This document shows positions 27,001 through 36,000 of a stretch of DNA of 45,897 nucleotides, in pieces. The stretch covers positions 1 through 45,897 of the forward strand of contig JBDRNJ010000069.1 in NCBI GenBank assembly GCA_043811375.1. Reading direction: 5' to 3'. The stretch is from a bacterium (GTDB lineage: Bacteria; Zixibacteria; MSB-5A5; GN15; FEB-12). A program made the position numbers. Within the stretch, counting starts at the first letter, position 1; each line of letters starts with the position of its first letter.

Positions 27001-30000
27001 TCTAAAGGGGGGTGGTGGTGTTGTGCATTTGCCGGTGTGCTGTGCTTCTCGACTCACCAAATATCACCTTAAGGGCCAGCCCAATCAGGGCTGATTCCCG
27101 GCGTTTACCCCTGTTAATACTGCTATTACAGGCGATTCAGTATAATATCCTGATAACAGGATCATATAACTTTAAGTATAGTACCACTTGACTAAATATA
27201 AAAGATATTGAATACTTACAGGCAGGATAGTAGAGAGTTACTACCAAACAGTTACTTGAGCCTATTAGGTATTGTTGAGGTAATGAGCAGTCAGCGAGAA
27301 TCGAGCCGGTGTGAACACGTCAAAGCCAGCGGGGACAGGTGCAAGGCAAAGCGCATCTCCGGTTCACAGCATTGCTTCTGGCACGACCCGACGAAGAGTG
27401 ACGATCGCAGGGCAGCCGGCCAGAAAGGCGGCAGTCGCCACCGGGCGAGGAGCTTGCCTAAAGAGGCCGCAGAGTTTGAAGTCAAGAAGTCTGAGGACGT
27501 GGTCAAACTGCTGAGCGTGACCATCAATCAAGTTCGCAGAGGCGAGATCGACCCCAGAATCGCAAACTCAGTTGGCTATCTGTCCGGGATTATTCTGAGA
27601 GCACGCGAGCAGGGGGACATCGAAGAAAGGCTGACACAAATCGAACAAATTGTTCAAAAAGGGAGGACAGGCGATGTCACAACGATTTCAGCGTCGGCTC
27701 ACTGAGCTTGAAGACAATCTCCAGGTGGGCGGTGACCGTGAGCAGTTCGAGCGGGACAGACGTTTCTTCTACAACCTTCAGAATCTCTCCAACCTGGCAA
27801 TCATAATCCTGATGCGTGCCACGGTGGATGAGATGGAGGTGCCGGAGTGGCTTGCCGCAGAGGTGCTGAAACCGATACCGCCAGATGCTCCAAAGGAGCT
27901 GGTTTTAGAGGCAACGAAACGTGCTGAAGGAATTGAGTCGCTTCATGGCGCCGACCAGGATCAACTAATCAGTGAGATAGATCAGGTAATAGACTTCTAT
28001 GCCGAGCGGTCACGCCAAACAATGGGTTCGCTGGCTGACGTACAGGCCTATCTGGAGGATCAGAGTATACCAGCGCTGGTGTAAGGGATAGCTGCGTAGA
28101 AGCCAACCCTGTTAATCCACCGCATCATTCACTAAAGCACGACCGTTGTACTTGCCTGCTACGATGATGGTCAACAGCGTTCACCACCGTTCACCACCGT
28201 AGTATGTGATAAAACTGACCTACCTGTCGATTATTCGCTTGACATTCGTTCAACAATTGTCGATATTACTTATGCTCACTGACACGTCGCGTTTTTTTGT
28301 GTCAGATACATAGTGCCCGTAAGACGACTCTAATGCGTCCCTCAGCGTTCGTGTTAGTGAGCGAGTTGTCGAGCGGGCACGTTATTCTGGAGTTTCTTAT
28401 GCTCACTAAGAAACACTCTCCCAAATCAGGCCGACTTGTCGTCGGCTACGTCCGGGTATCCACTGCCAGACAGGCCGCCGAAGGCCAGAGCATTGATGCC
28501 CAGGTTCAACGTATCCATGCTTACGCCAAAGCAAATGATCTCACTGTGGACAAAGTCTACACTGAGAACGGAGCCAGTGGCAAGAACACCGACCGACCTG
28601 TCTTAACCCAACTGCTGGCAGACCTGGACGACATCGGTGTCGTGATCGTCTACAAGTTTGACCGGATCAGCCGATCAGTGGTCGATCTGTACAGCCTCCT
28701 GGAGCGTTTTCAGACAGCTGGGATCACCTTCAAATCAGTCAGTGAGGGTGTGGACACCGGCTCGGCCGTTGGCAAGTTCATGATGAACGTACTGGCCGGA
28801 CTCGCTCAAATGGAGCGGGAGTTGATTGGCGAACGGACAAAAGACACTCTGGCCAGCAAGCAGGCCCGCGGTGAACATTGCGGCAGGATACCCTTCGGCT
28901 TTCGCATGGGCGACGACGGTCACCTGGAGCGGGACCCGAGTCAGCAGCTGGTGATTGCCAGGATTAAGAGACTGAGACGAAATGGCCGGTCCGAACGCGA
29001 CATTTCGGAGCGGTTAAGCCTGCCAAAATCGACCGTTCATATTGTCGCGAGCCGACGGAGAAACTGCCGTAACGGTGTGTCACAGTGTCCGTTATGAGGA
29101 AAAGGTGCCCATAAAACGCTCCCTTTCTGGGCAAAACATTGTCTGAAACTTCTTGAAAAGATGCGCAGACCGCGCATATTAGGATAGATACTGAAACAAT
29201 ACTGAAGTGAAACTGAAACGAATAGGCAAGTGCTTCAATGGCCCGTCACGAGCAGATTGACATTACGACCGCCGACATCGAGAGCATCGCATACCACAAC
29301 ATGCGAATCGGCGACATACCGGTACGTGACATGCAATTGGAAAAACCAAGTCTCGGCCTGACAGGTCGTTTTGACCCCAGCAGCATCATGCCTTGGGAGT
29401 TCGATGATTTTGCCTACCAATTCCGACTTAGCACCGGATACGAAGCGACCGCGGACAGTAGTACCATTCCTTCCGCTTGGGTGGAGCGGAATTTCCAGAG
29501 ACCTTGGCATCTTAGCGTTGATTGGCCCAGCAAGATTCGCAGTGGTCAGCGGATTCGCGTGCTGTTGCTTCCCCATAGGACGATGAGAGACACGAACGGG
29601 TGTGATCAGTTTCCCGAATACAACTTCGGATATGAGTTGCCACACCTGCTCCTATCTGAACAGTTGACGCTCAACACTGCTGACCGGCTTATGAATGTAC
29701 TCCCCGCAATCATCCGAATAATGAACTACTCCTGTCTCGGAGATAGTGCTGAACTCTTCGCGCTGAGGATGTTGATGTTTCTCCATCTGATCGAGTTAGA
29801 GGGCAAGGCCCTCCGATTTGGCTACTCTCCCATTTCCTCCCGCAGATCGCTCAGCAATTGTGGTTTAACGCTGGATCGATTGCGTATGATCGCGTCATTG
29901 GATGACGAGAAGAAGGAAAAATTAGAGCTGTCACTGAACCTACCGAGTTGCCGAATTGAGGATCTGCTCCAATCGTGGGAGGAATTTGGGCAGCGAATGG

Positions 30001-33000: not shown

Positions 33001-36000
33001 CTGGCAAGGGTGCCATCTACGTAGCTTACCGTGGTATTTACGTGGAATCTCTGCGGGACGCTTACATGGTCAGGGTGGCCAATAACTTCTGTGCAAGCCT
33101 GTTCATAGACGTCCGGGACGTCTGGCGGCGAGCTGAAAAGGCTGGAAGCGACGATATCCTACTCCTGCGTTACGAGAAAGGAGCCAAAGTCCCCAGAGTC
33201 CTCTACCCCGAAAAAGGCCCATTCTGTGACACTGTGTATTACGATATTTTCGGCCCGACCATAGTCGGTACTAACGAGGGGGTCCACAAGATACTGGAAA
33301 CCAGGGCGATCCAGATGAATATGCCACAGACCGCCAAACGCTTTGAGAACGACATTACACCTGAAATCGCCCTTCCCTTGAAAGAAAAGCTCCTGGCATT
33401 CCGAGCGAGACACCTCGGGGAACCCTTTCCAGATATTGCCAAACCTGCTTTTGGTAGACTCGGGGATATTCTGAAACCGCTCCAGCAGATAATTAGGGCG
33501 GTCAGCCCCGAGCGAGAGAAGAGCTTCCTCGAACTCGTCCGGGACTTGGAGCGAGAGAGGCTGAACGAGAAAGCCGACAGTCTCGAGGCCAGGATTCTTA
33601 CTGTTCTTGAGAGCCTCAGGAACCAGGTGGATAAGGGCAAGTTGGCTATCAAGGATATTACAGACTCCCTGAATGAGGGGAAAACCGAAAGGAACCAGAT
33701 CAGATACCAAACGATCGGCCGAAGGCTATCGGCGATGGGTTTCGAGAAAGCCCGAATGGGCAACAACATGGGCATAGTATGGAACGAGGACCAGATCGAG
33801 CGGTTCCGGAGTGCCTACGGCCTGAAACAAACACACGAAACACACGAAACACACAAAACTGTTGCGTCCCAACGGAGTTTGCTGAGTTCAGAAACTGTGT
33901 GATTGGTGGGTTTCGTGCCTTTCGTGTGTTTTATGCAGTGTGTGGGTAATGGATATTGACAATTCAGCCAGTTCTGGTTACTCTGCACAGAAGCGGGGAG
34001 TAGGTGAAACAATGCGCTGCGCCATTTATAGCAGATATTCGATTGAGACTCAGAGCCCGCGTTCGCTGGTTGACCAGATCAGTGAGTGCCAATCGCTTGC
34101 CAAGCAAAAAGGATGGATTGTACTGCCGGCCCACATTTACCAGGATGCCGCTGTCTCGGGATCGGATGTCAACCGGACGGCCTACGGAGACTTGAAGCGG
34201 GCGGCTCTAAACCGCGAATTTGACTGTATCCTTGTGGATGATCTATCCCGCCTGGGCAGGGACATGGCCGAGTCAGCGAGCATATTCAGGGATCTATCCA
34301 ACATCGGCGCCAGAATAGTCAGTGTCTCAGATGGCATTGACACCAACAACCCTGCGGCTAAGATACCGTTCTATTTCAAGGGTATCATGAATGAGATGTT
34401 CCTTGATGATCTGAAAGCGAAAGTCATCAGGGGACTCAAGGGGCAGGTTCTGCGTGGGTATTCTGCGGGTGGGCGAGTCTACGGATACAATACCAAGCAA
34501 ATCCTCGATCCTTCCGGTGCCACGGACAAGTTCGGCAGACCCAAGCGAATCGGATGTGAGATTACTATCTATCAGGAGCAGGCCCGGATCGTGCAGGAGA
34601 TATTTAACCTTTCAAAATCGGGTTTTGGGTGCAGATCAATTGCTGAGTCACTGAACCAGCGCAAAGTTCCATCTCCTCACGCCTCTGTGGCAGGAAGAAG
34701 TGGATACTGGGGTAGGGGGACTGTCTACTCGATCTTGCATCAAAGGAAGTATCTTGGTGACTGGACTTGGAATAAGTCCAAATGGCTCAACAGGACTCAG
34801 AGTGGAAAACGGATCAAGCAGAAACGTCCCGAATCCGAGTGGGTTCATCACCAGGATGAAGAACTACGGATTGTGTCTGACGAGCTTTGGCAGAGCGTGC
34901 ACCCCGGAAACACTACTCGGACCCGGGTTAGCAGTGGTAGGCGCAGCATTTACCCGTTGTCCGGTGTGCTGAAATGTTCGTATTGTGGTGCCTCACTGGT
35001 CGTTCAAAACAGCGGCAAGTACTCATGCTATATGTGCAACGGCTACCGCAATGGTGGCCGGACCGTCTGTTCAAACAACCGCCGTATCTTACGTGATCCT
35101 CTGGAAAAGTCCTTCTTCGCTGAACTGAATTTGGCTTTTATGAACCCCACTATCCTACAGCAGGTGAAGGAAAAAGCGGAAAATGCGCTCAAGGCACGTC
35201 TGGCTGACTGGCGGCAATCGTTTGAGTCGGCACGATCCAGAAAGCGGGACCTATCGCGACAACTTGACAATTTGATGAAGTTCGTTGAGGATGGTGACAG
35301 CTCCCCGGCAATCAGAGAGAGGATTGCACAAAAGGAAGCAGAGTTGGTCTCCGCTGAGGCGCTGCTTGAAAGAGGTTCCAGACACCGGTGTTTAGATCAC
35401 AACATATCAGTGGAATACCTTGAACGTCACCTTGGGCAACTGGCGACCCTTTTCAAACAGAACAAGCGTTACACAGTGCGCCTGAAGCAGGAAATCAAAA
35501 ACCTCTTCCCTGATGGCTTAGCAGCCGTTCAGGAAGAGGTCGATGAAGGCACACTATTTCAAATCAATGGTACAGCAAGGCCATTTTCATCGGCCCTGTT
35601 GCCCACTTCCAAAATGTCACATAGCGGTACGGGGAATCGAACCCCGGCTTGATGGCTGAGAACCATCTGTCCTAACCCCTAGACGATACCGCCAGATTTA
35701 TCTTACAGCATCCAAAGGACACATCAGTCCAAATATATGACGTTGGTTGTCTTTGTCAAGCCCTGCCAGACGATTGCAGCCCGTTGGTCCGGCCGCCACA
35801 CCAGTAATTCAATGGCACTGAATTAATTAGGCCGTGAATCGGGCATGGCGGTCCGGCAACGGTCGATGCTATCAGTGAGAGTTGGGTGTGACTGTGGTAC
35901 GGCCTGCTTTCAGTAGTCTGAAAGTATGAGTGTGAGTCGTTTTGATTGCTGTGCGAAAACAATCCACTCGTGAAAACTCGCTGCCGGCGTGCGGAAGCAG

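Follow-up and report, generated by a model that had tools for sequence, protein, structure and literature searches.

A 13.6-kb mobile element, as judged from sequence, occupies the end of a tRNA-Glu gene in a Zixibacteria genome, and the gene for its large serine recombinase (LSR) appears to cross its own insertion site. The reading favoured here, held with somewhat better than even confidence, is that attP lies within the integrase gene, that the tailed enzyme encoded by the excised circle is the fully active integrating form and that the clipped copy stabilizes integration. One stretch of DNA would then carry three readings: a tRNA end, a putative integrase binding arm and protein code. The window analysed was the whole of a 45,897-nt contig (C69).

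The element and the recombinases of its genome

The small integrative element spans positions 22018-35630 (13,613 bp); the interval given in the survey's finding (28399-35694) covers its right half only. The LSR gene (33940..35652, + strand) encodes 570 aa from a GTG or 546 aa from an ATG at 34012. PF00239 (Resolvase), PF07508 (Recombinase) and PF13408 (Zn-ribbon) all scored above their cut-offs and the catalytic Y-x-R-x-S motif was present. The final 32 nt of the gene are antisense to the tRNA-Glu(CTC) gene (35621..35694, - strand; confirmed by Rfam), inside which it ends. This tRNA is the integration target, and its 3′ end is restored by the element. At the distal end, the 17-nt repeat of the tRNA-Glu 3′ end noted previously was present (22008..22024, - strand), as was an orphan 3′ end of an integrase gene (22025..22102, + strand) with 25 codons (WDIMEVGLEIEFTVLSRRGRRKATG) and a stop, whose frame is shared with the LSR only in the excised circle. 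An older, related LSR gene has left its decayed 3′ end at 21923..22007 (+ strand). The distal site is therefore a tandem junction and not original chromosome, and the true attB of the element is hidden as a result. Neither excision nor a circle nor an empty site was observed for the element; none of the 19 cydB loci of relatives inspected for an empty site adjoins a tRNA. The fossil end of a His-type tail (22115..22147, + strand; 84% to C63:11783-11900 over 22115-22231) reads as the trace of an integrase-module swap.

Cargo is encoded at 22375..26912 (+ strand): a 775-aa Ig/Fn3 secreted protein, a cupin, a STAS protein and an S26 signal peptidase. Further genes at 27208-27705 and 27650-28084 (+ strand) have homologs in related elements, and one at 29238-30890 (+ strand) encodes 550 aa without a family. 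The small serine recombinase (Resolvase + HTH; 28297..29097, + strand) is probably the circle resolvase. An 87-aa conserved small protein with a weak DUF5659 match (31193..31456, + strand) is a candidate directionality factor or regulator; its homologs were found beside eight related LSRs and in the His element. The earlier description 'primase-bearing' was too strong: only a DnaG-type CHC2 zinc-finger protein (31655..32296, + strand) and a 554-aa DUF3631-like protein (32238..33902, + strand; assigned from an atlas lead) were found, and profile scans detected no primase catalytic domain among the element ORFs. Pfam, PHROG and PDB sequence searches with the DUF3631-like protein gave no match; it is probably the ATPase/helicase partner of the replication module.

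The genome contains nine PF07508 matches and nine long LSR frames, that on C32 lacking its 5′ end because the contig begins within it. The range of identity among the nine (20-55%) was reproduced. They had been presented as one related panel and fall instead into five lineages with 20-29% identity between them, four of which are tRNA-linked. Of six LSRs described at tRNA genes, five end in, or at most 50 nt from, an intact opposite-strand tRNA (Glu C69, Gln C31, Asp C28, Arg C6, Leu C70); the sixth passes through a 69-nt copy of tRNA-His nt 8-76 (C70:465-533). Two others end on tRNA 3′ fragments at the places already reported (Asp, C32:1502-1526, 25 nt; Met, C42:3248-3274, 26/27 nt), and the C57 LSR has no convergent tRNA. 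The C31 LSR crosses the whole tRNA and stops 40 nt past its 5′ end, and the C6 LSR stops 46 nt before reaching the tRNA. Among the 1,723 stop-to-stop ORFs of at least 300 aa in the whole genome, five end within 50 nt of an opposite-strand tRNA or tmRNA, and all five are LSRs. The tRNA fragments of 25-28 nt and 69 nt are probably ends displaced by later insertions: tyrosine integrases adjoin the intact tRNA-His (C8) and tRNA-Asp (C27), though none was found beside tRNA-Met (C15).

A rebuilt symmetric attP inside the integrase gene

Joining the two element ends rebuilt an attP of serine type inside the integrase gene, symmetric about tRNA nt 65/66. The arm within the LSR coding end (35605..35620) matches the far arm (22026..22041) as an inverted repeat at 14/16 nt. 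Taking the symmetry centre as the basis, the crossover dinucleotide would lie at 35629..35630 on the tRNA side, at the T-stem/acceptor-stem junction, and at 22016-22017 in the distal repeat. Arm symmetry at this register reached 9.0/16 in 26 rebuilt attPs, where every other offset gave 3.2-5.0; 10 of the 26 join ends from different contigs and 8 were selected by a score in which symmetry counts. Natural attP-like phage contigs (26, chosen by core alone) gave 8.4 against 3.3-5.0 elsewhere. A first pass located distal sites for only 10 of the 77 cases, and related sites and tails are not independent. Identity to the tRNA beyond the symmetry centre was 0-13 nt in the rebuilt sites, and only 0-1 nt in 7/26, which fits the expectation for serine chemistry; attP can thus do without the 17-27 nt of the tRNA that it had been proposed to carry. 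Inverted arms around a 2-bp crossover with little extra attB homology, the arrangement by which LSR sites are recognized, were thus present. All this strongly suggests that the serine integrase recombines a symmetric attP of ~50 bp with the tRNA-Glu 3′ end, with crossover at nt 65/66. The tRNA would be restored because the integrase-side attP arm supplies its last few bases. The survey's view of the LSRs as integrases of elements inserted at tRNA 3′ ends is supported. No clear attP arm symmetry was found at C6, and searches for the far end at the C31, C32 and Leu LSRs did not find it.

In the excised circle the LSR frame continues into a 25-residue tail. Integration swaps this tail for four tRNA-antisense residues, which close the protein beyond the shared core. 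The ORF ends inside tRNAs, suspected earlier to be in part read-through past the true C-terminus, are not of that kind: the true terminus is encoded beyond attP. All 26 rebuilt tails were open (12-42 aa) in the cognate frame, though three different frames are used, and their length and sequence vary widely. The same register, arm symmetry and in-frame tail were found in the 26 rebuilt and the 26 natural phage attP sites. An alternating-hydrophobic motif was present in 21/26 tails in the cognate frame against 2/26 and 8/26 in the other frames; it occurred in 2/25 integrated ends and in just 13/26 phage tails. Mismatches between tails were distributed 21/18/38 by codon position (five independent pairs, two of them without third-position excess; p=0.003) and 21/25/24 after the stop. 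By this codon test the tail is, in all appearance, translated and selected.

Possible functions of the tail

A natural read-through homolog (P0017) was modelled with AF2. After a disordered att-coded linker, a strand was predicted at residues 560-567 (block pLDDT 87) and was retained in a C-terminal-only model (pLDDT 83). The model matches the SPbeta, phiC31, Bxb1 and LI structures, including the coiled coil within the zinc-ribbon domain, and the solved LSRs align mostly up to residue 217-225 of 258. The tail is thus predicted to pack as an extra strand onto the zinc-ribbon/coiled-coil domain. The clipped form retains the entire known LSR fold and so may be fully active.

In the favoured mechanism, the position of attP inside the 3′ end of the integrase gene would give the gene two forms, as is seen in the sequences: on the circle it encodes a longer enzyme ending in a conserved strand-plus-basic tail, after integration a clipped one; natural read-through forms exist. 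The tailed enzyme would most likely be the fully active integrating form. Integration would then leave a clipped enzyme of lower or altered activity and so stabilize the integrated state, as reported for Mx8. In Zixibacteria the tail end may double as a protease tag through which the enzyme is removed once integration is done.

The tail could alternatively be a built-in directionality factor (RDF), the tailed form integrating and the clipped form excising without a separate one. The model places the strand against the zinc-ribbon/coiled-coil part, to which the SPbeta RDF binds according to the accessible part of one report (PMC11722253), and no known RDF gene was recognized among the element ORFs. 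This account is nevertheless unlikely: the RDF could be the conserved protein at 31193-31456, the model does not show legibly which surface the strand contacts, and constant excision by the clipped form would make the element unstable. It also seems improbable that the tail serves chiefly for degradation or remodelling, as a tag of the ClpXP type, with equal catalytic activity in both forms. Circle-made integrase would then be short-lived or stripped from the tRNA-overlapping product sites. The tail end resembles the MuA-type ClpX tag. Ala is the last residue in 10/17 Zixibacteria tails against 5.7% of 2,237 genome ORFs; for an end of basic residues plus Ala the figures are 7/17 and 1.0%, and 9/26 phage tails have a terminal Ala; mycobacteriophage repressors lose a tag on integration (PMC3694055, in part). 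Terminal Ala is however found in only 1/9 tails rebuilt from proteobacteria and Nitrospira and is absent from the window's own tail, and conservation is strongest in the internal strand, for which a degron has no use.

If the overlap were a by-product of compact genomes, the tail would be neutral and both forms equivalent. The complete canonical fold of the clipped form and the range of tail lengths agree with this, but the motif matches the frame in three frames, the third-position excess ends at the stop codon and the strand is confidently predicted, which makes neutrality a rather poor prospect. Finally, the LSRs might merely ride at the ends of islands that tyrosine integrases or the small resolvase had inserted. 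Tyrosine integrases do adjoin the intact tRNA-His and tRNA-Asp of this genome, and surveys describe tRNA-inserted elements as tyrosine-type in their accessible parts (PMC11476347; PMC11551731). This is very hard to credit given that C69 has no tyrosine integrase (PF00589), that the sites have symmetric arms and a 2-bp centre with almost no further identity in 7/26, and that on phage contigs the intact site lies inside the LSR gene.

Known systems, relatives and change of target

Myxophage Mx8 integrates into a tRNA-Asp gene. Its attP lies within the integrase gene (IntP/IntX), and integration swaps 112 residues for 13 with a drop in activity (cited in the available part of PMC4701971). Mx8 thus resembles the window enzyme in the exchanged C-terminus but is a tyrosine recombinase with a far larger part replaced. 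In streptococcal ICEs targeting rumA, att also lies inside a serine integrase gene whose C-terminus differs between excised and integrated forms (Ambroset et al., 2016; PMC4701971, in part); these are conjugative elements with a protein-coding target and reciprocal 3′-end exchange. DsiB of the Dehalococcoides ssrA genomic islands is a ~540-aa LSR acting at a structural-RNA 3′ end; dsiB overlaps attL, the islands occur in tandem with a companion small serine recombinase, and the authors suggest that full function of dsiB may require the circle, or a position downstream of a neighbouring island (McMurdie et al., 2011; PMC3146451, in part). The overlap with attL, the tandem arrays and the small serine recombinase recur here, but DsiB targets tmRNA and its module has RecF-, ParB- and Mom-like genes, none of which was among the window element ORFs scanned. 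The available passages define no crossover register, attP symmetry or conserved tail for DsiB (PMC3146451). As far as these sources go, the design is already in print for a few integrases (DsiB, rumA ICEs, Mx8), and the tRNA-targeting serine clade is a twist on it. McMurdie et al. (2011) suggested that only the circle carries such an integrase in complete form, and this becomes directly testable.

Tycheposons of marine cyanobacteria are tRNA-inserted elements of 10-20 kb that carry an integrase, a small serine recombinase, replication genes and cargo and are defined by a hallmark-gene network and a mostly monophyletic tyrosine-integrase clade; 27/937 carry an LSR, whose elements' insertion place is not stated in the accessible text (Hackl et al., bioRxiv 10.1101/2020.12.28.424599). 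The window element is similar in size, tRNA insertion, partial-tRNA flanks and lack of conjugation or capsid genes, but lacks the tyrosine integrase that most tycheposons have. Their primase/helicase replication module may be represented in it by the zinc-finger and DUF3631-like proteins. 'Tycheposon-like', as the element had been called, suits its class of small elements and not its integrase clade, which is also found in true phages. The integrase acting in mycobacteriophage integration-dependent immunity is tyrosine-type. There attP also lies inside a gene, but the split gene is the repressor, which loses a C-terminal segment with proven tag function (PMC3694055, in part). SPbeta, phiC31, Bxb1 and Listeria LI integrases share the catalytic, recombinase and zinc-ribbon/coiled-coil domains and ~50-bp sites with a 2-bp centre (PMC11722253, in part); identity is 16-20%, and their solved domains stop before the att-coded linker and extra strand. 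Serine integrases are major genome-engineering tools, usually dependent on an installed landing pad. To our knowledge, the targets of the four just named are not tRNA genes. A clade that uses conserved tRNA 3′ ends and leaves them unbroken would give access to native sites in many bacteria, and two bases would set the orthogonality.

LSR relatives were found in 31/284 other genomes of the phylum (E<=1e-40), a recount of the 32/280 given before. As reported, 22/29 fetched loci have a convergent tRNA (Met 11, a class mixing elongator- and initiator-type tRNAs by features that we presume diagnostic; Glu 5; His 4; Thr 2), and of the remaining 7, 4 are truncated by a contig end. The proposed repeated change of target in this lineage held: Glu(CTC) rows sit at four places in a quick tree, and AU tests reject a single Glu clade and a single elongator-Met clade. 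The replication-like genes of the Glu and His elements are 88% identical, their LSRs only 37%, and the two carry reciprocal fossil tails, which indicates a module swap. These comparisons support repeated Glu/Met retargeting, in part through module swap. Where tRNAs resemble each other at the 3′ end (Glu, Met, Thr), the target would change through changes at and near the two crossover bases, and between His and Glu by exchange of the whole integrase-plus-attP module. Related enzymes follow, by their sequences, the same design at other tRNA genes in many bacteria and phages. It is doubtful, if conceivable, that from Zixibacteria to Proteobacteria, in phages and small elements, a widespread class of tRNA-targeting serine integrases sets its direction through its own recombination: the strand coded by the far attP arm makes an integration-only enzyme, its loss leaves an excision-competent form and the target is reset by crossover bases or module swap. 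Most database proteins of this clade are clipped tRNA-antisense forms (165/258 fetched homologs show this kind of ending under a loose pattern), so that cloning the annotated gene would yield the wrong C-terminus. Rhizobium phage RR1-A has the read-through form.

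Integrase genes that end at tRNA genes

The survey's finding that large serine recombinase (LSR) genes of this genome end at tRNA genes on the opposite strand proved real. The genome has 1,723 ORFs of 300 aa or more; only five of them have their end within 50 nt of a tRNA encoded on the other strand, and all five are LSRs. The single LSR of the window's contig (33940-35652, + strand; catalytic, recombinase and zinc-ribbon domains) has its final 32 nt antisense within tRNA-Glu(CTC) (35621-35694). Nine LSRs were found in the genome: five end at an intact opposite-strand tRNA, one traverses a 69-nt copy of tRNA-His, two terminate on tRNA fragments of 25-27 nt and one, on C57, is the sole case without a convergent tRNA. 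The earlier tally for relatives of the window LSR, a convergent tRNA at 22 of 29 loci, was obtained again.

Some of these genes have particular ends. On C57, a same-strand stretch resembling the 3' end of tRNA-Asp lies 15-45 nt past the LSR stop at 50345 and may mark the end of an island or an inverted site. The Arg-type LSR carries a TAG (C6:115824) 46 nt ahead of the tRNA, where its relatives stay in frame, possibly a premature stop. A tenth, partial LSR (C28:16951-17736, near the contig end) corresponds to the C-terminal part of the C32 type; it lies at a tandem junction, where the C28 tRNA-Asp element has its far end.

The tRNA fragments of 25-28 nt and 69 nt are best read as ends pushed away by later insertions. 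Tyrosine integrases adjoin the intact tRNA-His and one tRNA-Asp; none adjoins the tRNA-Met of C15. On that contig, an LSR C-terminal remnant (C15:4253-4558) sits on a 28-nt tRNA-Met fragment. Between it and the intact tRNA-Met lie large genes over 10.7 kb (C15:4527-15206), in which an integrase was not found. Two loci of relatives are also complex. L039 (G202:C25) is a tandem array: behind a frameshifted LSR, the tRNA-Glu end is present in four distal copies over 17 kb. L043 (G201:C64, about 4244-11073 in LSR orientation) has an intact attP-like junction in the chromosome and, between it and tRNA-Met, 6.8 kb of cargo without an integrase, possibly a non-autonomous element moved in trans. Many more tRNA or tmRNA fragments mark further islands on C19 (three tRNA-Pro(TGG) plus one fragment), C5, C46, C4, C1 and C71 (a tmRNA end at 3803-3826); 47-nt Met fragments and 20-nt Ser ends are among them.

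The Glu element and the attP register

After a 17-nt repeat of the tRNA-Glu end (22008-22024) comes an inverted repeat (14 of 16 nt) of the stretch of the LSR gene that just precedes the tRNA end. When both ends were joined, a site symmetric around two bases was obtained (35629-35630 / 22016-22017, tRNA nt 65/66), and the element was therefore delimited as 22018-35630 (13.6 kb). Besides the LSR, it carries a small serine recombinase, cargo and small conserved genes, together with a DnaG-type zinc finger and a DUF3631-like protein. The distal site is a tandem junction, since to its left lies the 3' end of a related, older LSR, now decayed. An empty site was sought in family relatives through the left neighbour cydB, and neither tRNA nor core was present in the fetched flank at any of 19 loci. 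The 554-aa and 550-aa element proteins had no match in PDB, Pfam or PHROG, and Rfam returned nothing besides the tRNA over 21000-37000. Two non-coding stretches without an Rfam family (22198-22271 and 22297-22375, the latter with a strong promoter-like site) recur at C71:23125-23199, C71:12292-12366, C40 and C4. By tblastx, a protein segment repeated at about 24480-24700 and 25385-25520 has many copies in the genome; it is probably a dockerin-like module at the C terminus of secreted proteins.

Twenty-six attP sites were rebuilt, 16 from single contigs and 10 by pairing contigs, for the targets Glu, Met, Thr, His and initiator-type Met. Two rows were left out: G199b, which is cut, and L039, with its frameshifted LSR and five candidate sites. 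From 20 proteobacterial candidate stretches, 7 were used, 2 were tRNAs, 1 was unusable and 10 were deemed chance. Arm identity over positions 9-24 averaged 9.0 of 16 with the centre at nt 65/66 and 3.2-5.0 at all other offsets from -6 to +6; cross-pairs gave 5.2 and shuffles 4.3. A score that counts symmetry had been used to select 8 of the 26 sites, which makes an independent set important. Of 80 viral loci, 26 distinct ones have the core of the tRNA, without its body, within the LSR gene, 30 are prophage ends, and 14 duplicates, 2 short loci, 7 without the core and 1 cut were removed. For these 26 attP-like loci, symmetry is 8.4 of 16 with the centre at nt 65/66, against 3.3-5.0 elsewhere; Rhizobium phage RR1-A likewise has the intact form, with the tRNA core inside its LSR gene. 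The register is thus general within the lineage of the window LSR. Past the centre, the rebuilt attPs share only 0-13 nt with the tRNA, so long tRNA homology is not needed.

The register is not common to all lineages, since the C28 (Asp) element, with a symmetry of 10 of 16, has its centre closer to the tRNA 3' end. In the same genome, far ends were located for the His element (C63:11739; 12 of 16, no further identity) and the Met element (C29:13232). Pairing the C6 (Arg) element with C71:23261 as far end did not give clear arm symmetry, and genome-wide scans for the far ends of the C31 (Gln), C32 (Asp) and C70 (Leu) elements returned chance-level candidates only. The two crossover bases of Met-targeting elements (e.g. 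C42:3248) are GC. This palindrome should permit integration either way round, yet all the elements observed are in the tRNA-restoring orientation.

An integrase gene split by its own attP

On the circle, the reading frame of the window LSR continues into 25 codons (22025-22102) that replace four tRNA-derived residues. All 26 rebuilt sites have such an open tail of 12-42 aa in the frame of the cognate LSR, with three frames in use. In the cognate frame, 21 of the 26 tails have an alternating-hydrophobic motif; read in the other frames, 2 and 8 of 26 do. The motif occurs at 2 of 25 integrated ends and in 13 of 26 tails from phages. In the AlphaFold2 prediction for the homologue P0017 (43% identical), which reads through naturally, the att-coded linker is disordered and a strand predicted with confidence follows it; this strand was kept when the zinc-ribbon/coiled-coil part was folded alone. 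Alignments of solved LSR domains to the 258-residue model mostly reach residue 217-225; on this model, the clipped (integrated) enzyme retains the known LSR fold and the predicted strand is an addition.

Target, register, symmetry, split gene and a selected tail are shown at the level of sequence. The reading we favour, somewhat better than even, is that the tailed enzyme would integrate with full activity and the clipped enzyme would be damped or altered. Precedents exist for parts of it. Passages of McMurdie et al. (2011, PMC3146451) deal with an LSR that targets tmRNA; its gene invariably overlaps attL, and the authors suggest that only on the circle is it complete. Serine integrase genes targeting rumA contain att (in passages of Ambroset et al., 2016, PMC4701971), where Mx8 is cited as less active in its swapped form. 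A literature search found no paper on the combination of a tRNA-targeting LSR with att in its gene, on this tRNA-targeting clade or on its tail; the sites may stand in the tycheposon Supplementary Table 5, the Durrant LSR tables or the TIGER/Islander flat file.

Other readings were weighed against the damped or altered clipped form. That the LSRs are mere passengers at the tRNAs is very improbable. A tail that is a neutral extension is improbable too: in five independent pairs of related tails, mismatches past the DNA arm fall at codon positions 1/2/3 as 21/18/38 (p=0.003) and after the stop codon as 21/25/24, with the third-position excess missing in two of the five pairs. The tail could be a protease tag, as in mycobacteriophage repressors, whose tag removal depends on integration (passages of PMC3694055). 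Tails ending in Ala make up 10 of 17 in Zixibacteria vs 5.7% of genome ORFs, and 1 of 9 outside Zixibacteria; the window's own tail does not end in Ala. We consider this unlikely, and give the same modest weight to a built-in directionality switch, in which losing the tail would itself set the direction of recombination.

Breadth of the family and change of target

A search with distant alignment confirmed at least 365 genome stretches as relatives, the hosts among the matches listed being chiefly Proteobacteria and Nitrospira. Of the best 80, 59 have a convergent tRNA-Met(CAT) at their end, 7 are cut and 14 have none, several of these bearing natural tails. For other lineages of this genome, whose att architecture is partly resolved, 20 of 23 C31-type and 10 of 14 Leu-type relatives are tRNA-linked, as are 7 of 15 C28-type rows (two being one locus). 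In the passages available, LSRs are present in 27 of 937 elements of the tycheposon set, pipolin LSRs have sites outside tRNAs (PMC11551731) and 88 tRNA-inserted Sinorhizobium elements are called tyrosine-type, one ambiguously (PMC11476347). A breakdown of LSRs by tRNA is absent from PMC12424338 and was not found in the passages of PMC12884075; the main text of bioRxiv 10.1101/2021.11.05.467528 does not contain 'tRNA'.

A quick tree of 41 rows (two labelled from partial tRNA sequence, one a broken gene) places the four Glu(CTC) rows at four separate points; in it, elongator-Met requires six changes, and His and Thr each form one group. AU tests on 17 of these rows, with groups named after inspection of the tree, rejected a single Glu clade (p=1e-9) and a single Met clade (p=1e-82). 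The 3' ends of tRNA-Glu and tRNA-Met match almost completely, as do the attP arms on C69 and C42, except at the centre and a few inner bases, so a change between these targets may be cheap.

A second route of target change is recorded in the DNA of the Glu and His elements. Their replication-like genes are 88% and their LSRs 37% identical, and each bears a fossil of the other's tail: a decayed Glu-type attP arm and tail lies 210 nt inside the end of the His element (C63:11951-12048), and the end of a His-type tail lies in the Glu element (22115-22231).
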